Source: Treponema sp. (GTDB lineage Bacteria; Spirochaetota; Spirochaetia; Treponematales; Breznakiellaceae). From it: a stretch of DNA of 52,940 nt. The position numbers and the translations under genes are program-made. Position 1 is the stretch's first letter, and each line of letters begins with the position of its first letter. The notes beneath the pieces were generated by a model that was not told the DNA's origin, made no database searches, and saw only the letters and a program-made list of their open reading frames with translations. Below, one piece after another: positions 5,282-44,108 of the stretch. The stretch lies in the NCBI GenBank assembly GCA_031288495.1, contig JAITRH010000246.1:1-52940 (forward strand), given 5' to 3'.

Positions 5282-5307
5282 GGAGTTATTTTACTGTTTT
5301 CATACCT

Positions 5308-6135: not shown

Positions 6136-8093
6136 TACTTACTGTTACCCTGCTGACTAAACTGATCCAGGGATGATGACATCCGTTCCATGCGATTATA
6201 GGCTCCTTCCATTTGGCCGTATTGGTTTTTGAGACTCGCTTCTTTGAGGGCAAGCTGCCGCTCTAAAGTCTCTACCCGCCGCTGTTCCTGATTTATCTGG
6301 GAATCTATAGTTCCGCTTTTGAGGGCGATGATGCCTCCGATTTCCACGAATGGTTTAGCCAGGGTTTCAAGGGTATAGGCAAGCCCTGCATCCACAATGA
6401 AATCCTCATTGGTATCGGAACCAAAGAGCTGGGCAATGGCAGGTAAATTAGTTTGTAATGCCTCATCCAAGACCTTCTCATTGATTTCCAGGTATCCCCG
6501 CAGCCGTGCAGGATCATACCCACTGCTTCCCCCTCGCCGGATATCCGTACCGATCCCGATCTGGGCTAATAAGGCAAGATCCCGGTTTGCTAACGTAGGA
6601 TAGGTTGCTGCCGCAGCCCTTTGAAGACTGGCTTTAAACTGAGTCAAGATAGAATCCCCGCTAAAAACCCCTAAGCGTTTGCGCAGATCCGCTTGTTCCT
6701 CCTCTGAGAGGTAGGAAAGCTCTTGAATAACCCGCTCGTCATTGCGGGTGAGCACATTAAGATCCGCCATAAGGCGATTATAGTTTCCTACCAAAGCTAT
6801 GATGGCGTCTTTGACCGCTGCCCGGTCAGGTTCGACCTTCAGTTGGATAGGTTTATCCGATGGGTTTCTGGCGGTGATGGTAAGCCCGGGGATAAGATCA
6901 TCGATCTTATTGGTAGGACGGGTAATCTCGATCCCTTCCATGGTAATCACCGCATCTTGGGCCAAAGACACCGGATTACGGGGTTTACTCCCTCCTTCCC
7001 CTTCGGAGTCTATGAACTGCAGGTTCCTAATAGAAACCTCCCGATGGGTATTTTGGTTGACAATTTCAAGGGAAACGATGGTTTTATCGATTTTATCCCC
7101 TAGTACATCGCTAAATCGGTAGTGATAGGTATTGAAATCGCTGGAATCCACAATAGGAGGCAATGCACTGTTCGTACCATCCGAATAGGTCAAATATAAA
7201 ACCTGCATAGCATCTACCTGGGCTACCGGTTCTAGGGGTGTCCAAGAAGGAATAGCACCGGCAGAAGAGGTCTCATCAGAACCTTCCTCAGCAACCGCTT
7301 CAGGAGAAAACTCCGCCGGTTCCTCTGAGGAGACCCTGTTTTCAAGTACCTTTGTGGCAATTTCAAATTGCAAAACCGCAGTCTGAGCAGAAAATTGCCC
7401 TAGATTAAAGGGTATGAACGCGGTCCCTCCAGGCTCTACGGTAAGAACCTCTTCCCGCAAGGATTTGGCTACCCCCTCTGCTGATTCCAACATACCGGAA
7501 CGTAAGCCCAAGGTTTCAGCGGTTTCTGAAAAGATCAGGGAATTCTCTGCGCCGGTTATCCGAGATTCAATAAAAAGCGATTTTTTCCCTGGCTGGACCG
7601 CGATAAGACTCCCTCCTATCTTATCCCGTCCCCGCCGGTTTAAGATTTCGGTAAATTCCCGTACCGATCCACCCCGAAAGGAAAAGGATATGCTTTCCTG
7701 TCCGATGGAAAAAGTATAGGTTCCTTCATCCACCGTAAAAGCATCTTCTAGAGGATCCGATAAGAAACGGTCCGACTGAGCAACTTGTTTAACGGTAAAG
7801 CTCAATTCCTGGTCTACCGCTTCCCTTGTGGAAATCCCGGAAAGAACCGATGGATCTGAAGAGTTGACAATCCGCTCATTGAAAGGATTTTGAAAAGAAT
7901 ACAGAAACCGGGCGCTATCCCTGAGGGTACTCATACGACGACTCAGATCTTGCCAATAGGTCTTTTCAGCCTGTAAATGTTCTACCTGCTTCTCAGAACG
8001 CTCCTTGGGGATACGTTCAACCTTCATAAGACCTTCAACGAGTTTTTCTGTATCAAACCGGCTTTTTAACCCCGGTACATAAATATCGGACAT
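6135..8093 (-). CDS. fliD: Flagellar filament cap protein FliD (hook-associated protein 2)
   Basis: 652 aa. The N-terminus MSDIYVPGLKSRFDTEKLVEGLMKVERIP and the C-terminal coiled coil ...LERQLALKEASLKNQYGQMEGAYNRME are typical of FliD. It lies downstream of two flagellin genes. Confidence 0.85.
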   Translation of the reverse strand: MSDIYVPGLKSRFDTEKLVEGLMKVERIPKERSEKQVEHLQAEKTYWQDLSRRMSTLRDSARFLYSFQNPFNERIVNSSDPSVLSGISTREAVDQELSFTVKQVAQSDRFLSDPLEDAFTVDEGTYTFSIGQESISFSFRGGSVREFTEILNRRGRDKIGGSLIAVQPGKKSLFIESRITGAENSLIFSETAETLGLRSGMLESAEGVAKSLREEVLTVEPGGTAFIPFNLGQFSAQTAVLQFEIATKVLENRVSSEEPAEFSPEAVAEEGSDETSSAGAIPSWTPLEPVAQVDAMQVLYLTYSDGTNSALPPIVDSSDFNTYHYRFSDVLGDKIDKTIVSLEIVNQNTHREVSIRNLQFIDSEGEGGSKPRNPVSLAQDAVITMEGIEITRPTNKIDDLIPGLTITARNPSDKPIQLKVEPDRAAVKDAIIALVGNYNRLMADLNVLTRNDERVIQELSYLSEEEQADLRKRLGVFSGDSILTQFKASLQRAAAATYPTLANRDLALLAQIGIGTDIRRGGSSGYDPARLRGYLEINEKVLDEALQTNLPAIAQLFGSDTNEDFIVDAGLAYTLETLAKPFVEIGGIIALKSGTIDSQINQEQRRVETLERQLALKEASLKNQYGQMEGAYNRMERMSSSLDQFSQQGNSK

Positions 8094-8767: not shown

Positions 8768-9601
8768 TTAACCAAGAAGTTGCAACACCGACTGGGTCCG
8801 CGTATTAGCCTGAGCCAACATGGCATTCCCCGCTTGGGACAGGATCTGATTTTTGGTATAACTAACCATTTCCGATGCCATATTCGTATCCCGAACCTGC
8901 GATTCTGAAGCCTGAAAATTTTCCGCTGCAATTGCCAAACCCTTAGCTGCCTCTTCAAAGCGGTTTTGATAAGCCCCAAGGTCAGCTCGCTGCTTAGAAA
9001 GTTGCCTTAAAGCATTATCCAGCGTTCCGATTCCCCCATTTGCCTTTTCAGCGTCGGTTATATCAAGACCCTCTATACCCAAAGCACTAGCAGTCATGGC
9101 CTCAATATAGACCCGTTCATTCTGATCCATATTAGCCCCAACCTGGAATACCGCGCCCTGATTACCCTCGGTCTCCCGCCCAAAACGCCCCGTTAGAATA
9201 TTCAACGTGTTAAATTGGGCATGACTTGCAACCCGATTGATTTCATCCACCAACTGGGAAACTTCTACCTGAATCTGGATACGATCTTCATCGGTATAAA
9301 TACCGTTGGCAGATTGGACCGACAATTCCCGAATACGATGCAGAATATCCTGGGTTTCCTGAAGATACCCTTCAGCGGTCTGAATAAAAGACACGCCATT
9401 TTGAACATTTCGTTCAGCCTGATTTAGACCCCGAATCTGACTCCGAAATTTTTCAGAAACCGCAAGCCCAGAAGCATCATCCGCCGCTTTATTGATCCGT
9501 TGCCCTGAGCTTAAACGCTCAATGTTCTGCGAAATTTCAGCCTGAGTGATACCCAGATTACGATTAGCATATTGAGCACTCAGGTTATGATTAATTATCA
9601 T
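8768..9601 (-). CDS. flaB: Flagellar filament core protein FlaB (flagellin), copy 1
   Basis: 277 aa. [17 protein letters not shown]... at the N-terminus and ...[19 protein letters not shown] at the C-terminus are the spirochaete FlaB/flagellin N and C domains. Confidence 0.95.
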
Positions 9602-9787
9602 ATAACCCTCCTTGGGTTAATAACCCCTACTATCCATAGTTAGGGTCGAACCGCACGATCGGAAACTCCAGAACCTGTTCACGCCACATATCCTGACATT
9701 TCCAAAAACGGCACGAATCGATCATCAGATGATTAAAAGTAACCCATCACCTAATAAACAATCCCTGCTATCGTACACTTGCTCTAT

Positions 9788-9940: not shown

Positions 9941-10801
9941 CTATTGAAGAAGCTGCAGTACCGACTGGGTCCGCTGATTTGCCTGAGCCAACATAGCCGT
10001 ACCGGCTTGGGAAAGAATCTGATCCCGGGTAAAGGAAACCATCTGCTTTGCCATGTCAGTATCCCTAATCCGAGATTCCGAGGCCTGGAAATTTTCAGCA
10101 CCAATGTCAATGCCACCAATGGCATGTTCAAGCCGATTCTGGTAAGCTCCGAGGTCTGCCCGCTGCTTACTAACTATCTTGAGGGCTTCATCCAAAACCC
10201 CAATAGCCCGGTTGGAATCTTCCGCGCTTTCAAGGCTCACAAAGCTCTGATCCTCCACATTCCGCAATCCCAGTCCCGTCGAAGTCATGGTACCCACAAA
10301 TACCTGCTCCCGCTGATCAATATTGGCCCCAATATGAAGCCACATCGAAGCGGTAAGGGTATTCTCCCCATCCTGGCGAGCATACCGACCGGTAAGCATG
10401 TTCAATCCATTGAACTGGGCGTGGCTGGCAATACGATCGATTTCGTCCACCAACTGGGAAACCTCAATCTGAATCTGCATACGATCTTCTTCAGTATAAA
10501 TGCCGTTGGCCGATTGAACCGCCAATTCCCGAACCCGCTGAAGAATATCCTGGGTTTCCTGGAGATACCCCTCGGTGGTTTGGATAAAAGAAATCCCATC
10601 CGCAGCATTGGCAGACGCCCGATTTAAGCCCTTAATCTGACTCCGAAATTTTTCGGAAACTGCAAGCCCAGAAGCGTCATCTCCCGCCCGGTTAATCCGA
10701 AGCCCCGAAGTGAGCTTCTCCATATTCTTGGTAAGATTACCCTGGGTAACATTAAGAGACCTGTCGGCAAACTGAGCACTCAGGTTATGATTGATGATCA
10801 T
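9941..10801 (-). CDS. flaB: Flagellar filament core protein FlaB (flagellin), copy 2
   Basis: 286 aa. [17 protein letters not shown]... and ...[19 protein letters not shown] mark it as a paralogue of the downstream copy. Confidence 0.95.
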
Positions 10802-13892: not shown

Positions 13893-14159
13893 ATGAAAGT
13901 AAAGCCCTTAGCAGATCGGGTCATAGTCAAACTTGAGAAAAACGAAGCTAAAACTGCGGGGGGGATTATTATTCCCGATACGGCTCAAGAAAAAACCCAG
14001 ACTGGCGTGGTGGTGGAAATTGGCGACGACAGTGAAGTGATCAAAGTAAAACCGGGCCAAAAGGTGCTGTACGATAAGTACGCCGGGACCCAGATAAAAA
14101 TCGACGGGGTAGAGCACCTGATTCTTAAGATGGCGGATATTATCGCGGTTATTGAGTAG
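13893..14159 (+). CDS. groES: Co-chaperonin GroES
   Basis: 88 aa. MKVKPLADRVIVKLEKNEAKTAGGIIIPDTAQEKTQTGVVVEIG is the canonical Cpn10 sequence. Confidence 0.95.
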   Translation: MKVKPLADRVIVKLEKNEAKTAGGIIIPDTAQEKTQTGVVVEIGDDSEVIKVKPGQKVLYDKYAGTQIKIDGVEHLILKMADIIAVIE

Positions 14160-14195
14160 CGTTTTGTCTGCAACCCTTATATAGCGGGGCATCAA

Positions 14196-14228
14196 CAAAA
14201 AACCCGGTTCGTATGACCGGGTTTTTTG
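14196..14228 (+). terminator. Rho-independent terminator after groES
   Basis: AAAAAACCCGGT-tcgtatg-ACCGGGTTTTTT. The A-tract and T-tract flanks make it potentially bidirectional. Confidence 0.8.
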
Positions 14229-14601
14229 GTTTGCGCTGGTTTCCGGGATCCCCAACCCCTCAGGGTGCTCCTTATGGGTCTACGGACATGGTGGACCGAG
14301 GTAAGGAAACGACTGCGATCCTCTGTGCCGCTCTTGACTTAGGCCGCTCAAACCCCTTCTTTAGCCTTCTCGACTATTTCTTCCTTAATCTATCCCGTTC
14401 CGGGAGATACCGCCGCTATACGGATGGCCGCTCTCTACCGCCATAACACACCCTCTTCCCTTCCTAGCGGTAGCCGCCACCGCCTCATAGGTCCGCCCGC
14501 ATCGTGGTTTTGAAACCGGTTCATATTACCCCAGCCCCAGCGTCCTAGCATAAATTACCCCGCCGGTATATAACAGTAGTAACAAAGAAAGGAGAACCAT
14601 T

Positions 14602-15570
14602 ATGGTTACAACTGACGCGGATCTGCTTATTCTGGGGGCCGGTCCCGCAGGGCTTACCGCAGCCCAATATGGAGCCCGGGCTAATATGCGGGTCCTGGTG
14701 ATTGAAGAACTGGCTCCCGGCGGACAAGCCCTCCTCATTGATGCTTTGGAAAATTATCCCGGCTATATAGCATCGGTTCCTGGAACATGTAGATCCGGGT
14801 TTGAGCTTGCCCAGGATATGCACCGCCAGGCTGCAAGTTTTGGAGCCGCCTTTATCACCCAAACCGCCCGGTCCCTGCACAAAGAGGGGGATATTTTTAC
14901 GGTATGTTTGGAAACGGGCGACACCCTTCGGGGCTTTGCGGTGATTGTGGCTACCGGGGCTAAACACCGGATCCTGGATGTTCCTGGGGAGATTGAATTC
15001 ACCGGCCGCGGGGTCTCCTATTGCGCCAACTGTGACGGCCCCTTCTTCAAAGGGAAAAAGGTCTTTGTAATGGGCGGCGGCGATGCGGCCTGTGATGAAG
15101 CCCAGTTCCTTTCCCGTCTGGCGTCCCAGGTGGTGCTGGTTCACCGCCGGGATCGCTTCCGTTCCCAGAAAGCCCTGGCTGAACGGGTATTGCGCAATCC
15201 CCATATTACGGTGCGTTTCAATACCCGGCTGCTCGAGATCCGGGGGGCAAATACAGTAAGCTCCGTACTTTTGGAAAACATCCTAACCGGGGAATCCTAT
15301 GAGGAAGCAGGGGACGGGGTTTTTATCTTTGTAGGGACCATTCCCCAGACGTCCCTGGTTCCCTCTGTCGAGAAAGATGAGAATGGCTATATCATCACCG
15401 ATCAGGAAATGGCCGCTTCCATTCCTGGGATCTTCTGTGCCGGAGATGTCCGGGCCTGTCCCTTCCGCCAAGTGGTGGTTGCCGCAGGGGAAGGGGCGGT
15501 TGCAGCCCATAGCGCGGTAGCCTATATCGACCGGATTAAAGAGCAAGGGGATTGGGGTGCGGCGCTTTAG
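14602..15570 (+). CDS. trxB: Thioredoxin-disulfide reductase
   Basis: DLLILGAGPAGLTAAQYGAR (FAD motif), redox centre VSYCANCDG and second dinucleotide motif VFVMGGGDAA. 322 aa. Confidence 0.9.
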   Translation: MVTTDADLLILGAGPAGLTAAQYGARANMRVLVIEELAPGGQALLIDALENYPGYIASVPGTCRSGFELAQDMHRQAASFGAAFITQTARSLHKEGDIFTVCLETGDTLRGFAVIVATGAKHRILDVPGEIEFTGRGVSYCANCDGPFFKGKKVFVMGGGDAACDEAQFLSRLASQVVLVHRRDRFRSQKALAERVLRNPHITVRFNTRLLEIRGANTVSSVLLENILTGESYEEAGDGVFIFVGTIPQTSLVPSVEKDENGYIITDQEMAASIPGIFCAGDVRACPFRQVVVAAGEGAVAAHSAVAYIDRIKEQGDWGAAL

Positions 15571-17305
15571 ACCAAAACCTCCTCTATCGGCGATGCTCGT
15601 TGTGCTCTTTGGGCTGTCCCTCCAGGGTTTCTCTCTGGACTTTACGGATCCGGGGAGGCTTGGGGATATAGATTCCCATGCCGCTGCCTTGGTGGAACAC
15701 ATGTCTGATGCACAGGCCCTTGCCCAAACCTTCATGCTGGGCTGGGTGGGGGCCACCCCGTCGCCCCTGATTCTCGACTGGATTCGGGATCGCCATATCG
15801 GGGGCATTAAAATCTTCGGCTGGAACACCGAAGATACCACCAAACTGGCAGAAACCGTAGGGGCCCTCCAGGCTGAAGCCTTACGAGGGCCCTTTCATAT
15901 ACCCCTTCTGGTTGCCACGGACCAGGAAGGAGGCTGGATTCGGCATGTGAAAGGCGCCACCAGTGAAACCCCGGGCAACATGGCCATCGGCGCCTCAGGA
16001 CGTCCCATGGACGCCTATTGGTCGGGCTATTATATAGGCCGGGAACTGGCGGTGCTGGGAATTAATATGAATTTTGCCCCAACGGTGGATGTCTATACCA
16101 ATCGAGATTCGGTAATCATCGGTCCCCGTGCTTTTGGCGCGGATCCGGCCCGGGTAGGCATTCTGGGAACCGCCTTTATGAAGGGCCAGCATGCCGCAGG
16201 GATCATCGCTACGGCAAAGCATTATCCGGGACACGGCGATACGAACCTGGATTCTCATGGGGTGCTTCCCCGGATCGACGCCTCTTTTGAGCAGTTGTGG
16301 GAGCGGGAACTCATCCCCTATCGGCTCCTTACCAAGGAGGGGCTCACCGCGGTTATGAGCGGCCATCTCGCGTTTCCCAACACCCGGGCAGGGTTGACCC
16401 CGGCCTCCCTTTCATCCTGGTTTTTGCAGGACCTGCTGCGGGGTACCCTGGGGTTTAAGGGAATCATCATTACCGATGACCTTATGATGAACAGCGCCAC
16501 CATGAGCGCGGGGAGTCTTTCCCAGGCTGCGAAGGAAGCCCTTCTTGCGGGAAACGATATCATCATGCTTTCCAAGACCCCCCGCTTGTATGACCCTATT
16601 TGGACCCGCCTGGTGGATGCTATGGACCAAGAACCCCGGTTTCGCGAGCGGGTCAGAGATGCGGCCCGGCGGGTACTGGGGATTAAACTTACCTACCTCC
16701 GGGGCGAGCAGGCGGTCCCGTGGATACCGGATCTCAAAAAGGTTGCATCCAATCTGCCGGATCCCGAAGGGACGGCTTTTTTTTTGAATCTCGCGGCCCG
16801 GAGTGCTACCGTGGTGAAGGGGGCGATGGAAACCCCTGTAGTTCAGGAACTCAGCCCGGGAAAACCCCAAGAGCCGGATAAGGGGAGGAGAGGGACCGCG
16901 GTTTTTCCCCTGAGCCCTGAGAAAGCAGGGAAGGTGCTGCTGGCAGGCCAGTACGAGGATTTTTTCACGGTTGGAAAAAAGGCCTATCCCGAAGCTTCCG
17001 GGTATTGGTACGATCCTGAGGAAGGCACCGACTTGGTGCAGTACGCCCAAAAGGCGGATACGATTATCTTTTGCATCGCCAACGCCGATGGTTTGCCTTT
17101 CCTGCAAAGCCTGCAAGGGCTGCGCAAACGGGTGATCGTCCTGTCGGTGCTGAGCCCGGTCCATCTTGATACGGTTCCCTGGGTGGACGGGGCCGTCGCG
17201 GTGTACAGTTATGCCCGGGAATCCTTTATTGCCGGGTTTTCAGTGCTCCTCGGCAGGATTCCTCCGGGAGGAACCCTGCCTTTTTCATTGAACGAAACTC
17301 CATGA
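15557..17305 (+). CDS. Secreted glycoside hydrolase family 3 protein (beta-N-acetylhexosaminidase, NagZ-like)
   Basis: ATDQEGGWIRH and KHYPGHGDTNLDSH are GH3 N-domain motifs. It has an N-terminal signal peptide. The GTG start overlaps the trxB end by 14 nt; an alternative ATG lies at 15593. Confidence 0.8.
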   Translation: MRRFRPKPPLSAMLVVLFGLSLQGFSLDFTDPGRLGDIDSHAAALVEHMSDAQALAQTFMLGWVGATPSPLILDWIRDRHIGGIKIFGWNTEDTTKLAETVGALQAEALRGPFHIPLLVATDQEGGWIRHVKGATSETPGNMAIGASGRPMDAYWSGYYIGRELAVLGINMNFAPTVDVYTNRDSVIIGPRAFGADPARVGILGTAFMKGQHAAGIIATAKHYPGHGDTNLDSHGVLPRIDASFEQLWERELIPYRLLTKEGLTAVMSGHLAFPNTRAGLTPASLSSWFLQDLLRGTLGFKGIIITDDLMMNSATMSAGSLSQAAKEALLAGNDIIMLSKTPRLYDPIWTRLVDAMDQEPRFRERVRDAARRVLGIKLTYLRGEQAVPWIPDLKKVASNLPDPEGTAFFLNLAARSATVVKGAMETPVVQELSPGKPQEPDKGRRGTAVFPLSPEKAGKVLLAGQYEDFFTVGKKAYPEASGYWYDPEEGTDLVQYAQKADTIIFCIANADGLPFLQSLQGLRKRVIVLSVLSPVHLDTVPWVDGAVAVYSYARESFIAGFSVLLGRIPPGGTLPFSLNETP

Positions 17306-17326
17306 GACCCCCTGCTTGAGCTTGGT

Positions 17327-18202
17327 ATGATTCCGTTTCATGCTCCCTCTGCTTGGTATATGCTCGAAACCAATCCCCCGGAGGCGCTCCGCTTACAGGT
17401 AGCGGCATTCCTGCAAACCCGGGAACCCTATTGCGTGGCTGCGTCCGCCCGGTTTCTTCAGCGGAACCGCCAGGATCAGATCTGGGTACAGGAAAACCGC
17501 TGTACCCGGCCAAGAAGGATTGCAGGGCTTATCATCCACAGCAAAGGCACCCTGTTTCCCGTCTTTAACCGCATGAGCCCGGGGTTCCTTAAGGATTTCC
17601 CGGTTCGTGCGCTGCAAAGCCCGGGCTTTTATGCTATCCAGGGTATCCGTGGGGATGTGGCATTACTGGAGCAGGTCTTTGCTTTGCGTGGGCTATGCTC
17701 CGCAAAGCGTCTTGACTATGATTTGATGACCCTGGATCAGGAACCGCCTTGGCTTCTCTCCCCGGTCCCAGGACTCATCCTCCGATACGCCGAACCCCGG
17801 GATATGGAGGAGGTGTTGCGCCTGCAGGCAGCCTATGAACAGGAAGAAGTGATCCCCCGGGGAGAGGTATTTAATCCTGCCCTGTGCCGCCTGTCTCTGG
17901 AACATACCCTGCGCCATGAATACCTGCTGCTGGCCCAGGGGAAATCAAAAATCCTGGGGAAGATCAACACCAACGCCGCGTCTTTTTCCCGGTACCAGAT
18001 AGGCGGGGTGTATGTCTGTCCTGATTACCGGGGCTTAGGTATCGCCTCTTACATGAGCGCCGCCTTTGCCCGGGACCTGCATACTGCCGGAAGGGGGCTG
18101 AGCCTTTTCGTGAAGAAGCAAAACCCCGGGGCCCGAGAGGTGTACCGGCGTATCGGGTTTAAGGTTGTGGAGGATTACCGGATAAGCTACTACGAAACGT
18201 GA
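17327..18202 (+). CDS. GNAT family N-acetyltransferase with an N-terminal extra domain
   Basis: The C-terminal QIGGVYVCPDYRGLGIASYMSAAFARDL ... VYRRIGFK is GNAT motif A (acetyl-CoA binding). Confidence 0.7.
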   Translation: MIPFHAPSAWYMLETNPPEALRLQVAAFLQTREPYCVAASARFLQRNRQDQIWVQENRCTRPRRIAGLIIHSKGTLFPVFNRMSPGFLKDFPVRALQSPGFYAIQGIRGDVALLEQVFALRGLCSAKRLDYDLMTLDQEPPWLLSPVPGLILRYAEPRDMEEVLRLQAAYEQEEVIPRGEVFNPALCRLSLEHTLRHEYLLLAQGKSKILGKINTNAASFSRYQIGGVYVCPDYRGLGIASYMSAAFARDLHTAGRGLSLFVKKQNPGAREVYRRIGFKVVEDYRISYYET

Positions 18203-18379
18203 ATTCCGCGGGGTCGACGGGCGATACCGGTACCGGAATGATAAGCGACTGTGCGGTGAGACAAAGAAGCAAAAGTCCGCTCAGGTTTTAGCTTCATCCT
18301 ATCTCCTTGCCTGTATCGGGCCAATCCAGAACCCGCCCATTAAGGTACCTCCTGCTTCATGCACTGGAGGGAAGGCTCC

Positions 18380-18576
18380 CACGGTCAACAAGGTAAAGAA
18401 TGGTGTTCACCGATGACCCAGATTGCGGGCTAAAGTCCGGCACCGGTTAAGCGGATTGTTTGGACGAAAAAGCTGGGTAATCCAGGTAATCGGTGTAATC
18501 GCGGACCTCCGGTCCGGCGGACCAGAGGTCCGTGAAGACCTCTTTTGGTTTCCGGCCCCTTACCGTGTTGACCGTG
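18380..18576 (+). repeat. Structured repeat element, copy A (~195 nt)
   Basis: The ends CACGGTCAACAaGGTAA.. and ..TTACCgTGTTGACCGTG are reverse complements, forming a closing helix. Internal hairpins are conserved with copies B, C and D. A terminator-like hairpin GAGGTC/GACCTC followed by TTTTGGTTT lies at 18525-18551. Confidence 0.8.
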
Positions 18577-18643
18577 AGAAGCCAGGGTATGGGCGTTTAC
18601 TTTTGTAATTTCTTGTAAAACAAGGAATGAGATTTCCTAGATG

Positions 18644-18712
18644 GAAGGCCTGAAGCTGCCCAGCTTTAAGGCCTGAAGCTGCTTAGCTTTAAGGCCTGAA
18701 GCTGCCCAGATG
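18644..18712. repeat. 23-bp tandem repeat, about 3 units (AAGGCCTGAAGCTGCYYAGCTTT)
   Basis: Read directly: ...aaggcctgaagctgcccagcttt aaggcctgaagctgcttagcttt aaggcctgaagctgcccag.... It lies between repeat copies A and B. Confidence 0.8.
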
Positions 18713-18727
18713 GAAGGTACGAGGTTT

Positions 18728-18919
18728 CCCACGATCAACAAGGTAAGGAATGGTGTCCACCGATTGTGAACTAAGGTTCGACACCGGTTAAGCGGATTGT
18801 TTGGACGAAAAAGCTGGGTAATCCAGGTAATCGGTGTAATCACGGACCTCCGGTCCGGCGGACCAGAGGTCCGTGGAGACCTCTTTTGGTTTCCGGCCCC
18901 TTACCGTGTTGACCGTGGG
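18728..18919 (+). repeat. Structured repeat element, copy B (~190 nt)
   Basis: Near-identical to copy A over most of its length. The closing helix is CCCACGATCAACAAGGTAAGG / CCTTACCGTGTTGACCGTGGG. Mutually exclusive hairpins lie at 18844-18872 and 18866-18883, followed by a T-tract at 18884-18892. Confidence 0.8.
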
Positions 18920-19160
18920 CAGGCGCTCCCCCTCCCTAGCCCTCGGGTCCGCCTCCGCAAAGCCCCTCGCTAAGGAAGGGTCCCGGGGCCCTGTTCCACC
19001 CCGCCCCGGGCGGGGATGTACAGCAAGACCAACACCCCGGAAATAGCGCGGCGCCGCCGGGTATGGCCGGGTCTTTTGTTGGCCAATCCCGTACCGGACC
19101 GGCTCCGGGAATTAGCGGAATGCCTGGGGCTTCCTATGCCATGACCTGCCGCGCGGATCA

Positions 19161-19189
19161 TTGACCCGCTTAGGAAGGAGCAGTATGAT
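19161..19189 (+). promoter_or_regulatory. Sigma-70-type promoter candidate for the Stn-like operon
   Basis: TTGACC-cgcttaggaaggagcag(17)-TATGAT, about 330 nt upstream of the first operon ATG. It overlaps an SD-preceded 43-codon ORF (19185-19316), so only one of the two readings can be right. Confidence 0.35.
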
Positions 19190-19520
19190 AAAGGTATGCC
19201 CAGTTTATATACAACCCGGTTTTACGACAGGCAGTCCGCATCTTTTGCTTCTGAAGGGTCTTATCATCCCCCTGCGCTGGTCCGTGGTCTTGATTTCTAG
19301 GATTTTTTACCGGTAAACCACTCAATATTATGATGTACCTGGGGCATCTTACGATTCCCTCAGGGTCGTTCAGGCCTGCCTAAGCGAATCCGGGTGGCGG
19401 CTGAACTCAAGCCCATAAGGGACTTATTTGTTTCGTCCACAGTATCGGTTTTCTGTGGACACCATAAGGCCGGATGCAGCCGGTTTACAGTCCGGCGGAC
19501 CCGGTCATAAGGAGCGATGT

Positions 19521-20075
19521 ATGCTCTGTAGGAGTACAGACAAACAACATGCCGTTTCTCTCGGAGAACCCTCCGAAACCATACCCGTGCTTATAGAAGC
19601 CCGGGAGATTGTGAGCCTTGTCGGTTCCGCGCCGGAATACGCCATTCCTCTTTTACAGGAAATCCAGCGCCGCCACCGCTACCTTCCCCAAGACCTGGTG
19701 GAAGCGGTATCCCGGGAATCCCAAATTCCCCTTTCCACCCTTTACGGGGTGGCGACCTTCTATGCTCAGTTCCGTTTTAAACCCCAGGGAACCTATCTTA
19801 TCCGGGTCTGTCAGGGAACCGCCTGCCATGTAGGGGGCGCGGCATTGGCCGCTGCGGTGATACGCCAGGAACTGGGCATCCAAGAAGGAGAAACCACCGG
19901 GGACCGCTGTTTTTCCTTGGAATCCGTGGCCTGTCTCGGATGCTGCTCCCTTGCACCGGTCCTCATGATCGGGGAGACCATCTATGCCAAGCTCAGCGTC
20001 GCCAAGATCAAGGCGGTCCTTAAGGAATATCAAGAATCTGCTGCCCCGAAGGAGGCTTCTCATGGCGGTTCCTAA
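19521..20075 (+). CDS. NuoE/HydC-like [2Fe-2S] thioredoxin-fold subunit (StnA-like)
   Basis: VCQGTACHVGGA ... SVACLGCCSLAPVLMI is the NuoE-family four-Cys motif. I moved the start to ATG 19521, which is preceded by AAGGAG; the track ORF began at 19428. Confidence 0.85.
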   Translation: MLCRSTDKQHAVSLGEPSETIPVLIEAREIVSLVGSAPEYAIPLLQEIQRRHRYLPQDLVEAVSRESQIPLSTLYGVATFYAQFRFKPQGTYLIRVCQGTACHVGGAALAAAVIRQELGIQEGETTGDRCFSLESVACLGCCSLAPVLMIGETIYAKLSVAKIKAVLKEYQESAAPKEASHGGS

Positions 20076-21825
20076 ACTCCTTGTGGGCCTTGGTTCCTGC
20101 GGTATCGCGGCAGGGGCCCAAAGGGTATACACCTATTTGCAGGATACCCTGTCCCCTCAGGTAGCCACGGTGGACCTTACCTCCTGTGTGGGTATGTGCT
20201 ATGCAGAGCCTTTGGTAGAGTTCGTCCACGGAAAAGAGCGGGTCCTCTTTGGCCCGGTGGATCAGGCCTTTGCAGCGGAGCTCTGCCGGGACCTCCAGCA
20301 GGGAACCCTCCCCGCCGCGCACCGGGTCCGGGAAACCGGAGAAGGCCGGGCCTACCTTTCCCCACAGGTCAAGGTGGCCCTGCGGAACTGCGGGCGTATC
20401 AATCCTGAAAAGATCCAGGACTACCTGGATGCCGGGGGCTATGAGGCCCTTAAAACCTGCCTTACCCGTTACACCCCGGAAGAGGTCATTGCCCAGATCA
20501 CCGAATCGGCGCTAGCGGGCCGAGGCGGGGGCTTCTTCCCCACCGGCCGCAAGTGGTCCTTTCTCGCCGGCGCCCCGGTAAAAAAGGGGGAGGATAAATA
20601 CCTGGTTTGTAATGCCGATGAAGGAGACCCGGGGGCCTTTATGGACCGGGCCATGATTGAAGGAGATCCCCACGGCCTCTTGGAGGGCATGCTCATTGCC
20701 GCGTATGCCACCGGCGCGCGGTATGGCTACATCTACTGCCGGGCAGAGTATCCCCTGGCCATTAAACGGCTCCGCATCGCCCTGGATGAAGCGCGGGCGT
20801 ACCGGTTCCTGGGAGAACATATCCTGGGTACGGAGTTTTCCTTCGACCTCGGCATCAAGGAAGGAGCCGGGGCCTTTGTCTGCGGGGAAGAAACCGCCCT
20901 CATTGCATCTATCGAGGGACGCCGGGGGATGCCTAGTCTGCGGCCTCCCTTTCCCGCGGAATCAGGGATCCGGGGAAGCCCTACCAACATCAACAACGTA
21001 GAGACCTATGAGAACGTGCCCTTCATCATCAGCCGGGGCCCCGGGGCATTCAACCGGTACCGAAGCGGCAAAACCGTAGGGACTAAGGTCTTTGCCCTTG
21101 CAGGCAAGGTCAAACGGGTGGGCTTGGTGGAAATCCCTGTGGGCATGACGATCCGGGAACTGGTAGAAGGTATCGGCGGCGGCAGTTCCACCGGCAGACC
21201 CCTCAAGGCGGTTCAAATGGGAGGGCCTTCCGGGGGCTGTATTCCTGAGCGGCTTTTTGACATTCCTATCGACGTGGAATCCATCACCGCTACGGGGGCG
21301 ATCATGGGTTCCGGGGGCCTTGTGGTTATGGACGAAAAGACCTGCATGGTGGATGTGGCCCGGTATTTCCTCACCTTCATCCAAAACGAGAGTTGCGGGA
21401 AGTGTACCTTCTGCAGAATCGGGACGAAACGGATGCTGGACATCCTCACCATGTTTACCCGGGGGGAAGGGAGCGAAGAGGACCTGGTGCTATTGGAGGA
21501 CCTGGCAAACCATGTGAAGAAGACCTCCCTCTGCGGCCTCGGGCAACTGGCCCCGAATCCGGTGCTTACCACCCTCCGGTATTTCCGGGAGGAATACGAG
21601 GCCCATAGTAAGGAGAAACGCTGTCCCGCCAAGGTCTGTAAGCCCCTGATCCGATTTAGCATTCAGGAGGAGGCCTGTACCGGGTGCGGGGCTTGTGCCC
21701 GTACTTGTCCGGTTAAGGCGATTTCAGGAGAGAAGAAACGCCCCCATCATCTGGATTCCCTGAGCTGTACCCGTTGCGGTCTGTGCCAGGAAACCTGTAT
21801 GTTCCATGCCATTGAGGTCGAGTAG
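20062..21825 (+). CDS. NuoF/HydB-like NADH- and FMN-binding Fe-S subunit (StnB-like)
   Basis: GRGGGFFPTGRKW (FMN/NADH site), ESCGKCTFCRIG (N3-type cluster) and a C-terminal 2x[4Fe-4S] region CTGCGACARTCP...CTRCGLCQETC. The start is ATG 20062 after GAAGGAGG and overlaps the previous gene by 14 nt. Confidence 0.85.
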   Translation: MAVPKLLVGLGSCGIAAGAQRVYTYLQDTLSPQVATVDLTSCVGMCYAEPLVEFVHGKERVLFGPVDQAFAAELCRDLQQGTLPAAHRVRETGEGRAYLSPQVKVALRNCGRINPEKIQDYLDAGGYEALKTCLTRYTPEEVIAQITESALAGRGGGFFPTGRKWSFLAGAPVKKGEDKYLVCNADEGDPGAFMDRAMIEGDPHGLLEGMLIAAYATGARYGYIYCRAEYPLAIKRLRIALDEARAYRFLGEHILGTEFSFDLGIKEGAGAFVCGEETALIASIEGRRGMPSLRPPFPAESGIRGSPTNINNVETYENVPFIISRGPGAFNRYRSGKTVGTKVFALAGKVKRVGLVEIPVGMTIRELVEGIGGGSSTGRPLKAVQMGGPSGGCIPERLFDIPIDVESITATGAIMGSGGLVVMDEKTCMVDVARYFLTFIQNESCGKCTFCRIGTKRMLDILTMFTRGEGSEEDLVLLEDLANHVKKTSLCGLGQLAPNPVLTTLRYFREEYEAHSKEKRCPAKVCKPLIRFSIQEEACTGCGACARTCPVKAISGEKKRPHHLDSLSCTRCGLCQETCMFHAIEVE

Positions 21826-21834
21826 AGGTACCCC

Positions 21835-23919
21835 ATGTCCTTAGTTACCATAAGCATCAATAACCAAACCCTGCGCGTCGAAGCAGGTTCGAGCATCCTG
21901 CAAGCTGCCCGGCAGGGAGGATTCGATATTCCTACGTTCTGCCATGCAGACCATCTTAAACCCTTTACGAGCTGCTTTATCTGTGTGGTTAAGGTGCACG
22001 GCGGCAGGGACATGCTGGTCCCTGCCTGTTCCACCACGGTACGGGAGGGTATGATCGTTACCGTAGAAGACCCGGAGTTAGACGCTTCTCGTCGCATGTG
22101 TATTGATCTGCTCCTCTCGGATCACTGCGGAGACTGCCAGTCCCCCTGCCAAAGCGCCTGTCCTGCAAACATTGACATCGAGGGCTTTCTAGCCCTGATA
22201 CAGGAGGGAAAGACCGCTGAAGCGGCGCAACGTATCCGGGAACAGGCCCCTTTCCCCGGTATTCTGGGCCGGATCTGTCCCCGGCCCTGTGAAGAGGTCT
22301 GCCGCAGACGGCGGGTGGATGAGCCGATTGCCATTTGCAGCATGAAACGGCACATCGCGGATGCGGAGTTGCAGCAGTTTGGAAGTCCAAAGCTTCCTCC
22401 TCCCGGATCCCTCACGGGGAAACGGGTGGCCATTGTCGGCGCCGGCCCTGCAGGGATGAGCGCAGCCTACTACTTACGCCTCCAGGGTCATGGGGTACAG
22501 GTCTTTGAGCAGCACCCTGCCGGCGGGGGAATGCTCCGCTACGGTATTCCCTACTACCGGCTCCCTGAGGAAGTACTCAAGGCCGAGTTTGACGCAGTAG
22601 CGGATCTTGGGGTGGAACTCCGTTTCGGGGTACGGGTGGGAACCGACCTAGCGGTCAAGGCCCTGGAGCAGGACTTTGACGCCCTGATTTTGGGAATCGG
22701 CGCGCAAGGGGCCGTGCCTCTGGGGATTCCGGGAGCGGAACTTCCCGGGGTTTGGCCGGGGATAGCCTATCTTGAGGCCGTTGCCCAAAGAAACCCTCCT
22801 GAACTGGGAGACCGGGTCGCGGTAATAGGCGGCGGCAATACCGCGATTGACTGCGCCCGGACCGCCCTGAGGGAAGGAAAAGGAAGAACCCAGGTGAGCA
22901 TCCTGTATCGCCGGAGCCGTCATGAGATGCCTGCGGAGGATGCAGAGATTGCCGAGGCCCTGCACGAAGGGGTTAGGATTGAATACCTCACCGCGCCGCA
23001 GGAGATCCTTCGGGAAGGGGACAGGCTTATCCTTACCCTAAGCCGTATGGAACTCACCGCTCAGGATGCTTCGGGCAGGTGCAGCCCTGTACCGGTTCCC
23101 GGGTCGGAGTACCGGGTACGGGTAAGCGCGGTTTTAGCCGCCCTGGGGCAGCAGGTCTTACCGGACCTTGCCCGGGACCTGGGGCTTGAAACCACCCGAA
23201 GCGGGGCGGTTAAGACGGACCCCCGGACGTTTCAGACCGGACGGCCGGGGATATTTGCCTGCGGGGATTGTCAGAGCGGCGCGGATACCGTGGTACGGGC
23301 CGTGGGCAATGGCCGGAAAACCGCATATTCCGTTCATCAGTATCTCTCGGGGCTTCCCCTTACCGGAGAACCGGTCCTGTTTAACTCCTCAATGGGCCCC
23401 TTGGAAGACCTGGATGCCGAACTTTTCGCCGGGTATACGCAGGCAGAACGGGTGCGGATTCCGGTCATCCGCGATGAGGAGCGCCGAACCACGGATAAAG
23501 AGGTGGAGACCGGTGTTGAACCTGCCCTGGCGGTGAAAGAAGCGGCCCGCTGTCTGAGCTGCGGCTGCGATGCCCGGAAGGATTGCAAGCTCCGGCGCTA
23601 CGCCACCCGCTACCAGGGGGATCAGGGCCGGTTCGGGCCGCCGGTTTCCGGGAAGAGGCGGGCCTACAGCCTCGACGAAAGCCACGAAAAGATAAAGATA
23701 GCGGTACATAAGTGCATCAACTGTGGGGCCTGCGTGCGGGCCTGCGCGGAGATTAAAGGCCTTACGGTGCTTACCTATATCAATCGGGGTTTTACAACCC
23801 GTATCCACGTACCCTTTGGCCGTTCTTTGGTAGATACGGCCTGTGACGGCTGCGGCGAGTGTACCAAGGTGTGCCCTACGGCGGGGATCATGCCGCGGCA
23901 GGCAGGAACAGCCCTATAA
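21835..23919 (+). CDS. Fusion of a NuoG/HydA-N-terminal-type [2Fe-2S] domain, a GltD/NfnB-like NADPH-flavin oxidoreductase and C-terminal ferredoxin domains (StnC-like)
   Basis: The N-terminus is ISINNQTLRVEAGSSILQAARQGGFDIPTFCH...CFICVV...ACST. The GltD core has ICPRPCEEVCRR and KRVAIVGAGPAGMSAAYYL...GGMLRYGIPYYRLP. The C-terminus is CINCGACVRAC...CDGCGECTKVCP. No H-cluster motifs are present. Confidence 0.8.
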   Translation: MSLVTISINNQTLRVEAGSSILQAARQGGFDIPTFCHADHLKPFTSCFICVVKVHGGRDMLVPACSTTVREGMIVTVEDPELDASRRMCIDLLLSDHCGDCQSPCQSACPANIDIEGFLALIQEGKTAEAAQRIREQAPFPGILGRICPRPCEEVCRRRRVDEPIAICSMKRHIADAELQQFGSPKLPPPGSLTGKRVAIVGAGPAGMSAAYYLRLQGHGVQVFEQHPAGGGMLRYGIPYYRLPEEVLKAEFDAVADLGVELRFGVRVGTDLAVKALEQDFDALILGIGAQGAVPLGIPGAELPGVWPGIAYLEAVAQRNPPELGDRVAVIGGGNTAIDCARTALREGKGRTQVSILYRRSRHEMPAEDAEIAEALHEGVRIEYLTAPQEILREGDRLILTLSRMELTAQDASGRCSPVPVPGSEYRVRVSAVLAALGQQVLPDLARDLGLETTRSGAVKTDPRTFQTGRPGIFACGDCQSGADTVVRAVGNGRKTAYSVHQYLSGLPLTGEPVLFNSSMGPLEDLDAELFAGYTQAERVRIPVIRDEERRTTDKEVETGVEPALAVKEAARCLSCGCDARKDCKLRRYATRYQGDQGRFGPPVSGKRRAYSLDESHEKIKIAVHKCINCGACVRACAEIKGLTVLTYINRGFTTRIHVPFGRSLVDTACDGCGECTKVCPTAGIMPRQAGTAL

Positions 23920-24122
23920 GTCCCTTCTATGGAATACGGGCTCTTACCGTTCAGGTTCACGAATCATGGGGATGACCGTAAGCGTACCTTTGGTCGCGGG
24001 GTGGACCTTTTTCTCTTGGTCAAAGCTCCGGTATACAGGCTACAGGTGACCCACAACAGTACCGGGGTTCTGAACCGGATTGCCGGGATCCCGGGATGCT
24101 GCGGGTCCCCTTCAGTATAAAG

Positions 24123-24163
24123 GCCGGGGCTTTCCCAAAGCCGAAGGGGTGGAAAGCCCCGGC
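24123..24163. other. 13-bp perfect GC-rich hairpin downstream of the Stn-like operon
   Basis: GCCGGGGCTTTCC (24123-24135), a 15-nt loop, then GGAAAGCCCCGGC (24151-24163). No T-tract on either side. Confidence 0.6.
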
Positions 24164-24300
24164 GCTCTCAAACGAGGGGCCTCTCGGTACCCCATAGCGG
24201 CATAGAGCCTGCACAGGTCCGGCTCGTTCCGCAGGACCAAACCCCTGATCAGGGACGGCCGCGCCCGGTAAGGCAGGGTCCTGCCCGGCATGAGGGAAGG

Positions 24301-24666
24301 CACCGTCAACACGGCAAGGAATGGTATCCACCGGTTGTGGGCTAAAACCCAGCACCGATGAGGCGGGTTTTTTGGACGAACCAGGGATGTAATCCAGGTA
24401 ATCCGATGCTATTTGGTCAAACGGAACCCCCTGGTTCTCCCAATCTTGTACGCTTGGGATGAGGCAGCTTCTTTTCCCCTGTTGCCTCATCCATGCCACG
24501 GTACCATGCACGCCGCCTCAGCAACCGCCGGGCCGGCGGTACCATCCTATCGCCGCCGTGCTCCCGCCGCCTGAGCCTACCGCTTCACGGTCTTCCCGCC
24601 CCATCGCCCTGTTCATGGTCGTCTGTGGACCTCTTTTGTTTCCAGCCGCTTACCGTATTGACGGTG
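24301..24666 (+). repeat. Structured repeat element, copy C (~366 nt, carries an internal insertion)
   Basis: The 5' part (CACCGTCAACACGGCAAGGAATGGTATCCACCGG...GTAATCCAGGTAATCC) and the 3' part (GGACCTCTTTTGTTTCCAGCCGCTTACCGTATTGACGGTG) align to copies A and B. About 170 nt of unrelated GC-rich sequence replaces the central hairpin. Confidence 0.7.
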
Positions 24667-24836
24667 GGAGGCTTCCAGCTATTCCCTCTCTATTCAGCGT
24701 ACGGAAAGATTTTCCCCCTGCTCTACTGCCCGCTGAGCCTTGCGGCGGTCCTCCATGCTCGTCGGTCTTAAGCCCGTGCCCCTCAATCCTCCCTCAGTCC
24801 GGAACGCATCCATTCCCGGCTTAGAGGAGGGCCCAC

Positions 24837-25027
24837 CCCACGGTCAACACCGCAAGGAATGTGGTCCACCGGTTGCGGGTTAAAGCCCGGCACCGGCGAA
24901 GCGGGTTGTTTGGACGAACCAGCGGTGTAATCCAGGTAATCGGTGGAACCCCGGACCTCCGGTCCGGCGGACCAGAGGTCCGAGGGGACCGCTTTTGTTT
25001 TCCAAGCCCTTACCTTATGGACGGTAG
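24837..25027 (+). repeat. Structured repeat element, copy D (~190 nt, diverged)
   Basis: It aligns to A and B along its whole length (…ACGGTCAACACCGCAAGGAATGTGGTCCACCGGTTGCGGGTTAAAGCCCGGCACCGG…GGACCTCCGGTCCGGCGGACCAGAGGTCC…GCTTTTGTTTT…). The closing helix is eroded. It ends about 90 nt before the HD gene. Confidence 0.7.
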
Positions 25028-25117
25028 CCGTCCTACCCATTGCTATGGATTTATCCTGCTCCCTAGACATGCGTAAGGTATACCGTATAGGCTCTTTATG
25101 TATGAGCGCTCACAGGT

Positions 25118-26392
25118 ATGCATGATACGTATGCGGCACTAGAAAAAGGTTTTACCGCCCCTATTCGGGATGTCTTATGGGGGCATATATACCTTACCCC
25201 CGCCCTTGAGGCTTTGACGAAATCCGCGCCTTTTATGCGGCTGCATAGAATTTTCCAATTGGGGCCGGCGTATTGCGTATATCCCGGCGCAACCCATACC
25301 CGGGCAGCGCATTCCCTGGGAGTCTATCATCTGGCCCGCAGGCTGCTACGGAACTTCCTGGAACGAGGCGCCGATGTCTGGACCAGCCCCGGAGGGATCC
25401 GCTCTTTTCTCTGTGCCGCCCTCCTGCATGACCTGGGCCATTTTCCCTATGCCCACTCCCTCAAGGAACTGCCCCTTGAGGACCATGAGGCGCTGACCGG
25501 TACCCGGCTGTTAACCGAGCCCCTTAAAAGCCTCATAGGAGCCGCCGGGGCGGATCCGTATATAACCGCGGCGATTATTAATACCGCGCTTCCCGGGGCC
25601 AAGGAACAGGAACTGCGGTTCTACCGGAAATTGCTCTCCGGGGTCTTGGATCCGGATAAACTGGATTACCTAAACCGGGACGCCCGGTATTGCGGGGTTC
25701 CTTACGGCGCCCAGGATGTGGATTTCATCCTTTCCCGCTTACATCCTCATCCTGAACGGGGGGCGGATATTGATTCCCGGGGTATTCCCAGTGTAGAATC
25801 GGTCCTTTTTTCAAAATACCTGATGTATAAAACCGTTTATTGGCATCCCTCGGTCCGATCCGCTACGGCGATGATTAAAAAGGTGATTCTCCGAGGGCTT
25901 CAGCGTGGGGCCCTCCCCAAGGAGAAACTCTACGATCTGGATGATCAGGGCCTTTTCGCCCTCTTGGCAGCGGATCCCCTCTTTGCCCTGGGCGAGAGGG
26001 TCCGGAATGGCCGCCTTTTTGCGGCGGCCGCTGAATTCCCCTATGATCCGGTATGCCATAAGGAACTCCTCGATATTACCAGTCGTTCCCGGCATGAGGA
26101 AGCAGTAGCCGCGGATCTTTCGGATGCTCTTGGGTTTACGCTCGGGCCGGAAGCGGTGATCATCGATATACCTGAACAAATTACCTTTGAAACCGGTCTG
26201 TATGTACGGGATGAAGGGTGCTATTTTGAGCAGAGTTCCGGTATTTTTAAGGCTGAAACCGTAAAGGCTTTTATCAGATCCTTACAGGTCATACGCATCT
26301 TTATAGATCCGGACCCGGTAAGCGGTTATGCCGGTCATAGATATGCCTCTGTACTCAACGAGATATTGCATGTAAAGAGAAAATGGATATAG
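25118..26392 (+). CDS. HD-domain phosphohydrolase, SAMHD1/dGTPase-like (COG1078-type)
   Basis: THTRAAHSLGVYHLARRL, AALLHDLGHFPYAHS and DKLDYLNRDARYCGVPYG are the HD motif set of dNTP-triphosphohydrolase-like proteins. 424 aa. Confidence 0.75.
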   Translation: MHDTYAALEKGFTAPIRDVLWGHIYLTPALEALTKSAPFMRLHRIFQLGPAYCVYPGATHTRAAHSLGVYHLARRLLRNFLERGADVWTSPGGIRSFLCAALLHDLGHFPYAHSLKELPLEDHEALTGTRLLTEPLKSLIGAAGADPYITAAIINTALPGAKEQELRFYRKLLSGVLDPDKLDYLNRDARYCGVPYGAQDVDFILSRLHPHPERGADIDSRGIPSVESVLFSKYLMYKTVYWHPSVRSATAMIKKVILRGLQRGALPKEKLYDLDDQGLFALLAADPLFALGERVRNGRLFAAAAEFPYDPVCHKELLDITSRSRHEEAVAADLSDALGFTLGPEAVIIDIPEQITFETGLYVRDEGCYFEQSSGIFKAETVKAFIRSLQVIRIFIDPDPVSGYAGHRYASVLNEILHVKRKWI

Positions 26393-30444: not shown

Positions 30445-30573
30445 CTCGTAATCGACGTGAGTTCAATGGGACCGTAAGGGTCCGGGAAGTATTCGGATCC
30501 ATGGGCGTAATTTCGGACCAAGGTCTGGTGGACTAAGCTCCGGCGGACACGGCCGCTTACCGTGTGGACCGTG
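30445..30573 (+). repeat. Degenerate copy (E) of the structured repeat, mainly the 3' half
   Basis: ...GGATCCATGGGCGTAATTTCGGACCAAGGTCTGGTGGAC...CGGCCGCTTACCGTGTGGACCGTG aligns with ...ATCCAGGTAATCGGTGTAATCACGGACC...GGACCAGAGGTCCGTGGAGAC...CGGCCCCTTACCGTGTTGACCGTG of copy B. The left arm is not recognisable. Confidence 0.45.
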
Positions 30574-43486: not shown

Positions 43487-43584
43487 GAAAAAAATCCGGT
43501 ACCACCTTAGTATGCACTTGTTATTACCTAGTTGTCAATACCCGGTAAAGACCTATCATACCAATTGAAGAATGTAAATACACT

Positions 43585-43944: not shown

Positions 43945-44108
43945 GTCTCCATGTATGAATCCGGTAAGACCGGGGTAAGCCCTTGCTCATACCAAAAGAC
44001 GCCTTGCCGGTAACAATCCGTATATTGGTTTTAACAAGTTGTCAGTCCTTAGGATTGCCGAGTACCGTAATGAGCACAGTACTATCATCAAGGAGTTTAC
44101 GAGAAAAA

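Follow-up and report, generated by a model that had tools for sequence, protein, structure and literature searches.

Multi-copy structured motifs named TD-1 and TD-2 have been reported from Treponema, and both families are held in Rfam. Among mobile repeats, REPINs are hairpin-forming doublets of repetitive extragenic palindromic (REP) sequences and are mobilised by RAYT/TnpA-REP tyrosine transposases (PMC3116915); in these elements compensatory hairpin changes are common, as are tandem clusters that include the flanks, solo remnants and insertion beside existing copies (PMC3116915). Here we analyse a repeat of ~190 nt in a 52,940-nt stretch of Treponema sp. DNA (assembly GCA_031288495.1, the whole of contig JAITRH010000246.1; hereafter the window). 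Its units are probably a lineage-restricted, non-coding, non-autonomous and hairpin-forming interspersed DNA repeat of the REPIN, MITE (miniature inverted-repeat transposable element) or BOX kind, and they most likely behave as a selfish mobile repeat, unlike a conserved regulatory RNA. Copies occupy at least three loci of the contig, at least two further copies lie elsewhere, and the interior of the unit is a nest of palindromes.

The resemblance to REPINs covers both form and distribution: inverted conserved ends pair into a long hairpin in single-stranded DNA (ssDNA) or mRNA, compensatory changes occur, there is no target-site duplication, and the copies are intergenic and lineage-specific, lie in tandem near-identical clusters, leave solo remnants and sit beside existing copies. 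The element differs from REPINs in its length (~190 nt versus ~70–110 nt), in ends that are not 20–40-nt REP palindromes with a GTAG motif, in a complex interior of three nested hairpins with conserved unpaired motifs, and in having no RAYT in the one contig searched. With the MITEs Correia, RUP and Nezha (PMC3049150) it shares a length below 200 bp, the lack of an open reading frame (ORF), terminal inverted repeats, a highly paired fold, intergenic clustering and a potential action on co-transcribed mRNA, while departing from them in the missing target-site duplication, a composition that is not AT-rich, a single orientation and the lack of any known insertion sequence (IS) with matching ends. 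Like pneumococcal BOX (PMC3049150), the element is modular, with an internal tandem module of variable number (a GTAATC unit found three times here and once in the inferred foreign copies), and like SPRITE (PMC3049150) it has a terminator-like hairpin with a U-rich tract; both of these repeats also occur in clusters. The module nevertheless measures 9 nt rather than 45 nt, there is no sequence similarity to either family, and the terminator-like hairpin is weak and out-competed by another internal hairpin, termed P4 below.

Copies of the repeat in the window

Repeats were detected with a repeat finder and with an nhmmer profile built from four copies and run on the whole 52.9-kb window. Four copies of the full-length class were recovered, all on the plus strand (nhmmer E 6e-63 to 5e-50); beyond these, the profile search of the window yielded nothing except a partial 3' end.

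18380–18576, plus strand: copy A, full length, 197 nt (nhmmer E 6.7e-62)
18730–18917, plus strand: copy B, full length, 188 nt (nhmmer E 6.1e-63)
24301–24666, plus strand: copy C, damaged, 366 nt (nhmmer E 4.8e-50)
24839–25026, plus strand: copy D, full length, 188 nt (nhmmer E 4.2e-60)
30504–30573, plus strand: fragment E, solo 3' end, model positions 104–188 (nhmmer E 0.046)

Together with two copies found elsewhere, seven were examined in total, and the statistics on covariation and orientation rest on three to seven of them. A preliminary description of this DNA had noted two nearly identical ~190-nt units lying 350 nt apart. The near-identity stands, at 94.1% (177/188) between A and B, whereas the 350 nt is a start-to-start distance with an intervening gap of 153 nt; homology among the copies also extends ~10 nt past the ends given there. 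Copy A carries a 9-nt insert (GACCCAGAT, 18414–18422) relative to B, C and D. Identity of A and B to D is 80–82%, and C matches D at 84% across the shared parts, A being closest to B and C closest to D, with lower similarity across the pairs. The element has a GC content of 54–61%, compared with 52% for the contig.

In copy C, the alignments show ~210 nt of unrelated sequence (~24405–24615) where the other copies have the complete GC-rich hairpin and the 3' strand of the long-range helix; C is a damaged copy and not a long variant. Fragment E lies 5.5 kb off in an unrelated spacer, between the convergent genes 29784–30410 (plus strand) and ddl (30581–31684, minus strand); its terminal 24 nt (30550–30573, CGGCCGCTTACCGTGTGGACCGTG) match the 3' terminus of the element at 22 of 24 positions (local alignment z 8.7).

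Copies elsewhere

A phmmer search with a spurious 95-aa ORF that runs across D on the minus strand returned two foreign ORFs, P0123 (MDR3115656.1, locus tag LBU25_09070, from a Treponema sp. metagenome-assembled genome, MAG) and P0124 (from a JGI contig), both confirmed by a profile search (E 3e-22 and 7e-16, respectively). These two apparent copies outside the contig were detected via spurious ORF calls only, and their structure was read from the protein frame of P0123 and P0124, not from DNA. On that reading, both retain GGACGA as well as the left end (Y-x-VDRG) and the 5' motif (VDTIP = GGAATGGTGTCCAC), and both are 18 nt shorter at the GTAATC repeat, the length of two of its three 9-nt units; P0124 also has the 9-nt insert of A. 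The minus-frame reading of P4 in P0124, DLRSGGPEVR, is the plus-frame reading in the window, and therefore the asymmetric bulge and the loop of this hairpin appear inverted in the P0124 copy.

Pattern scans of DNA used TGGACGAA-N6-10-GTAATCCAGGT(AA) for genome and metagenome contigs and GGACGAA-N6-10-GTAATCCAGG for viral contigs. The two matches in genome contigs (both in coding sequence) and the 16 in viral contigs (coding, mostly in one conserved phage gene) were taken as chance, and none of the 31 in metagenome contigs had further similarity to the element by BLAST. Because the pattern spans the 9-nt repeat expansion that is missing from both foreign copies, these negative scans say little about the real range of the family, and the missing 18 nt account for the chance matches being all that the genome and metagenome scans yielded. 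Three more scans of viral contigs, based on P4, the 5' motif and the 3' end, gave nothing real, and no plasmid or phage sequence was matched by blastn.

Absence from the syntenic loci of relatives

The window's NuoF-like protein has counterparts of ~87–90% identity in Hollandina sp. SP2 and in MAGs of Treponema sp., with DNA identity of 79–85%. Five loci from relatives (L050, L052, L058, L059 and L060) share the gene order, none of them has the element at the A/B or the C/D site, and an nhmmer search of 92,056 nt of relatives' DNA found no copy. This comparative evidence is decisive. Synteny between L050 and the window is complete, at ~85% nucleotide identity. At the C/D site, the 1182 nt between a 694-aa gene and an HD-domain gene (23920–25101, with C and D) correspond to 125 nt in L050; the relatives' spacers at the site, those of L052, L058, L059 and L060 among them, are 142–166 nt long and contain a recognisably homologous terminator hairpin and a common TACCCCATAGC motif. 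At the A/B site, L050 has a LysR gene and a gene of 192 aa where the window has 915 nt (18196–19110) in which nothing of either gene remains. Since the copies are absent from these syntenic sites, we regard them as lineage-specific arrivals and not as conserved partners of the neighbouring genes.

In L050, the closest relative, the stretch that corresponds to 18196–19110 is 4009–6540, where the LysR-type regulator and the 192-aa gene separate the GNAT gene from the operon. A second NuoE/NuoF/ferredoxin gene set is additionally present in that interval in L058, L059 and L060. The window has none of these genes there and only a block made up of A, B and a ~50-nt repeat, G, described below.

The same synteny bears on two other explanations. 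A riboswitch or leader of the downstream operon was rejected, the same gene order being found in five relatives without the element. Integron core sites follow the consensus RYYYAAC and GTTRRRY, and the imperfect inverted ends of the element contain GTCAAC and GTTGAC, which are loosely similar. However, the operon of three genes that separates B from C is found in synteny in the element-free relatives and hence is no cassette, and the A–B and C–D 'cassettes' would be empty. It is therefore scarcely credible that the copies are attC-type single-strand recombination sites bounding gene cassettes, even with the single orientation of all copies and an ssDNA fold at z −4.9 in its favour; the contig also has no integrase, and the interior of the element is conserved, unlike that of attC sites.

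Folding and helices

The ends of the units are complementary over a closing helix of 19 bp, much as the preliminary description had it, with Watson–Crick pairs at 17/19 positions in A and in B, 16/19 in C and 12/19 in D, the remaining 7/19 in D being mismatched. With 10 nt of flank added to each, the left end of A and the right end of C show 85% complementarity across 27 nt, and the inverted ends, ~19 bp long, seem to reach ~29 bp in some copies. The long-range pairing CACCGATT/AATCGGTG and the hairpin with a CTAA(A/G) loop, both described earlier, are present as well. Fold energies were compared with shuffles of the sequence.

Copy A, plus strand RNA fold: −97.1 kcal/mol, z −7.7
Copy B, plus strand RNA fold: −96.6 kcal/mol, z −6.5
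Copy A, minus strand RNA fold: −91.1 kcal/mol, z −7.1
Copy B, minus strand RNA fold: −85.1 kcal/mol, z −7.0
Copy B, plus strand ssDNA fold: −43.3 kcal/mol, z −4.9
Adjacent 196-nt insertion that is not part of the element: −68.8 kcal/mol, z −0.4

None of 200 shuffles was as stable as A or B, and the structure of these two copies is real as a property of the sequence. The minimum free energy (MFE) structure of C does not contain the 19-bp closing helix between its ends (z −3.0), and the closing helix of D is absent from the MFE structure of either strand. Because the minus strand and ssDNA fold about as well as the plus strand, folding identifies neither the strand nor the molecule, and we infer that the strength of the RNA fold is a by-product of palindromic DNA.

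The very strong folding of A and B would also be expected of a functional structured RNA family, that is, multi-copy small RNAs or 3'-untranslated-region (3'-UTR) elements made from the plus strand, young or mobile and hence absent from relatives. In such a family the closing helix, the long-range helix and the CTAA hairpin would act as RNA helices and the unpaired conserved motifs as binding sites. We consider this unlikely: the element is absent from the syntenic sites of five relatives, two of the four full copies have lost core helices, and folding is as good on the minus strand as on the plus. The co-orientation of every copy with its upstream gene fits the RNA explanation, while no promoter-like site was found upstream of any copy. 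The modules and substitutions of the element bear on it further.

Internal modules and substitutions

Three modules recur within the unit.

18502–18532 (A), 18843–18873 (B) and 24952–24982 (D), plus strand: P4, a GC-rich 31-nt hairpin (CGGACCTCCGGTCCGGCGGACCAGAGGTCCG) with four GGWCC half-sites, absent from C
18767–18780 (B, UGAAC-UAAG-GUUCG) and 18426–18439 (A, CGGGC-UAAA-GUCCG), plus strand: P3, the variable CTAA hairpin
18818–18841 (B, with units at 18818, 18827 and 18836), plus strand: three tandem 9-nt units beginning with GTAATC, the same in A and with the third degenerate in D

P4 (−29.2 kcal/mol) is identical in A, B and D, with no substitution against 33 differences between A and D over 188 positions overall (17.5%; P ~0.003 by our own calculation). 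Unpaired motifs invariant in the four copies include AAGGAAUGGUGUCCACC and UUUGGACGAA, and the element sequences AAGGAATGGTGTCCACCGA and GCGGATTGTTTGGACGA are segments apart from the GTAATC repeats. P3 shows the opposite pattern: its stems differ among copies and still pair (CGGGC/GUCCG in A, UGAAC/GUUCG in B, UGGG/CCCA in C, CGGGU/GCCCG in D), three of the five pairs have changed on both sides, and 6 of the 11 substitutions between A and B are concentrated in its 15 alignment columns. P3 is the sole helix with several compensatory pairs. The closing helix adds one at its position 4, where the G:C pair of A and B is replaced by C:G in C (G.G in D). Both sets of compensatory changes had been pointed out in the preliminary description, and both are borne out.

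Invariant unpaired motifs, an invariant P4 and a variable P3 stem that always pairs count in favour of a functional RNA, and the consensus statistics lean the same way. RNAalifold paired 89.2% of cells compared with 85.0% in shuffles, with 10 pairs changed on both sides compared with 4.0 ± 1.4, and the pair counts exceed those of every shuffle and every slid register. Four of these ten pairs, however, fall in P4 columns, where the sequence of C is non-homologous, and the firm compensatory cases are the three pairs in P3 and the one in the closing helix. The real covariation, at ~4–5 pairs in four sequences, is thin. Compensatory changes alone do not show a functional RNA, since they are common in the mobile DNA hairpins of REPINs (PMC3116915).

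The evidence on strand is conflicting. In the inner helices, changes from A-U to G.U suit the plus strand; the transition mismatches of the closing helix (~5 independent events) are all A.C on the plus strand and become G.U if read on the minus strand. The inferred foreign copies, for their part, speak against an RNA on two counts: 18 nt of what would be inner helices are missing from them, and P4 appears flipped in one.

Close to their 3' ends, all four copies, C included, have a terminator-like hairpin with a U-run after it (U-runs at 18544–18552 and 18885–18893), a feature that would suit a functional RNA. The hairpin folds at −7 to −11.5 kcal/mol (z roughly −0.6 to −1.0), and a functional intrinsic terminator is improbable: the hairpin is weak, no better than shuffles and out-competed by P4. 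Weighed against the RNA explanation, it stands at −10 to −11.5 kcal/mol in competition with the −29 kcal/mol of P4.

The preliminary description had concluded that this is a conserved structured RNA or ssDNA element and not a simple repeat. What survives is a non-coding unit that is no simple repeat, folds beyond chance and has some compensatory changes; what does not is the label of a conserved structured RNA, given the absence from five relatives, the decaying copies, the lack of a strand signal and the ~4–5 covarying pairs.

Coding capacity and known RNA families

Substitutions between A and D fall on codon positions 1, 2 and 3 of the plus-strand ORF frame in the ratio 7/10/8, in agreement with the earlier observation that positions 1 and 2 are hit as often as position 3. 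With no codon-position bias, and no genuine protein resembling any frame apart from spurious ORFs, a coding region was rejected. A concatenated six-frame protein query gave no match, although its candidate list was probably saturated, as the single-ORF phmmer search later found P0123 and P0124. ORFs of 68–163 aa traverse the elements on the minus strand (24020–24511, 24783–25070 and 18637–18843), and at least two element-traversing ORFs are listed as predicted proteins in public collections (P0121, P0122); these ORFs are annotation artefacts of the repeat.

Against the 4227 covariance models of Rfam 15, the element reached no gathering threshold, TD-1 and TD-2 included, and the only matches at threshold in the whole window, one tRNA and one Termite-flg RNA, are both away from it. 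Relaxing the search to E up to 10 on 18200–25200 and 18700–18950 gave microRNA-type chance hairpins of 15–20 bits, where the cut-offs are 40–100. Membership of TD-1 or TD-2, which the preliminary description had left open, is thus excluded: the isolated element matches neither, even at E up to 10.

Two further RNA candidates were rejected. A retron RNA or an omega/bridge-type guide RNA beside its enzyme finds no reverse transcriptase, TnpB, IscB or IS110-type gene nearby, and a Y-RNA-like closing stem has neither an Rfam match nor a TROVE-domain gene among the contig ORFs.

Flanks and duplicated blocks

Target-site duplications and random orientation had been named in the preliminary description as the marks of an ordinary MITE, and neither was found. 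Direct repeats in the flanks of A–D are at chance level at 14 nt (p ~0.5) and at 30 nt (p 0.47–0.93), even for the 94%-identical A and B, and all copies lie in one orientation. A classical MITE of a DDE transposase, with duplications that have eroded or are too short to detect (e.g. 2–3 bp) and mobilised by an IS with the same ends elsewhere, is accordingly quite improbable, although the element has terminal inverted repeats of 19 bp, paired at 17/19 in A and B, and a short (<200 bp), non-coding, structured, intergenic and clustered unit fits the MITE description (PMC3049150). The element is moreover not AT-rich (54–61% GC versus 52% for the contig), and the contig holds no IS.

Each pair of copies sits in a larger lineage-specific block, A and B within 915 nt (18196–19110) and C and D within ~890 nt (24200–25093, by our own reading). 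A ~50-nt repeat, G, at 19022–19073 (plus strand) has a partner, G', at 24230–24280 just upstream of C (local alignment z 5.6), giving the order A-B-G, oxidoreductase operon, G'-C-D. Blocks of similar size, each with two elements and the G repeat, together with the closer likeness of A to B and of C to D, could suggest non-mobile relics, left by segmental duplication and rearrangement of one ~900-nt intergenic block on either side of the operon and kept similar by gene conversion. This is very improbable, as the blocks are unrelated outside the elements and G, the solo end E lies 5.5 kb away in an unrelated spacer, and two further copies are on other contigs. A larger exact composite unit was likewise rejected, the spacers between copies being unrelated.

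Two other features were seen beside the copies. In the spacer that separates A from B, a 23-nt unit (AAGGCCTGAAGCTGCCCAGCTTT) with its own small hairpin is repeated in tandem three to four times (18645–18713). The 694-aa gene is followed, immediately past its stop codon, by another lineage-specific insertion (23920–24115, 196 nt). A perfect direct repeat of 5 bp, TATAA, brackets this insertion (23915–23919 and 24116–24120), at a site where the relatives read an uninterrupted CC(C/A)TATAAAGG; it is unrelated to the element and folds no better than shuffles.

A model for the spread of the repeat

The picture that best fits a selfish repeat of the REPIN, MITE or BOX kind is one in which the unit entered intergenic DNA, was duplicated locally into tandem pairs and is now decaying. 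The decay is read from C, which has lost the inner helix strand and P4, from D, whose closing helix is down to 12/19, and from E, a solo 3' end. The copying enzyme would act in trans from a gene elsewhere in the genome and would recognise the conserved ends, perhaps with the invariant GGWCC-rich hairpin as well; the mobilising IS, RAYT/Y1-HUH gene or recombinase might be flanked by CACGGTCAACAAGGTAAGG. A single-strand transposase of the HUH/Y1 type or a site-specific recombinase is likelier than DDE cut-and-paste, because there is no target-site duplication and only one orientation. A copy co-transcribed in a 3' UTR would be predicted to form a long hairpin, which could affect mRNA stability or read-through.

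Several observations weigh against a mobile repeat. No clean empty-site junction was found at the element's own ends in comparison with relatives, and this, with the missing target-site duplication, leaves transposition of the 190-nt unit itself a putative step. The 52.9-kb contig has no transposase, RAYT, Y1, integrase or recombinase ORF and no IS. Each ~900-nt block may have arrived, or been rearranged, whole. All five copies in the window share one orientation, with each locus downstream of a plus-strand gene. The unpaired conserved motifs, the invariant P4 and a P3 that is hypervariable yet pairs look, at the level of sequence, like functional constraint. Finally, with seven copies power is low, and the mobile-DNA and functional-RNA explanations are not statistically separable.

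Some of these points would be accommodated by a structured nucleic acid that is mobile and has a working core, in which the unpaired motifs, the 31-nt GGWCC hairpin and P3 as a specificity module would support duplication-free spread via a single-stranded or hairpin intermediate. This could be a new class mobilised by an HUH enzyme or recombinase in Spirochaetota, or an RNA guiding its own enzyme. A hairpin intermediate would fit the apparent flip of the P4 palindrome in the P0124 copy; we nonetheless regard the proposal as decidedly improbable.

Surroundings of the element

The Termite-flg RNA (RF01729) lies at 9619–9723 on the minus strand (44.9 bits versus a 40-bit cut-off), upstream of a flagellin gene (8768–9601, minus strand), which supports an origin from a termite-gut spirochaete. 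A second flagellin paralogue (9941–10801, minus strand) accounts for repeats spaced 1200 nt apart. A stretch of ~12 kb (14000–26000) has a GC content of 0.56–0.61, compared with 0.43–0.49 on both sides, and spans the Pyr_redox-GH3-GNAT genes, the operon and both element blocks. Further along, 223-nt direct repeats at 43580–43802 and 44113–44335 are 78% identical and 533 nt apart; the latter falls inside an HTH_3-domain ORF (43983–44465), possibly a duplicated small regulator gene.

Significance

If the explanation we favour, a selfish mobile repeat, is true, the element would be one more selfish hairpin-repeat family, of note chiefly because no other was placed in termite-gut Treponema before it in this analysis. 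It carries a caution, in that strong folding together with some compensatory changes is not enough to make an RNA gene, and it affects annotation, as the copies create spurious ORF calls (P0121–P0124) and probably break MAG assemblies. In the organism, the repeat marks two rearrangement-prone junctions around an operon for an electron-bifurcating-type oxidoreductase. Its importance would be greater if duplication-free insertion in one orientation and the invariant hairpin reflect a new mechanism of mobilisation.

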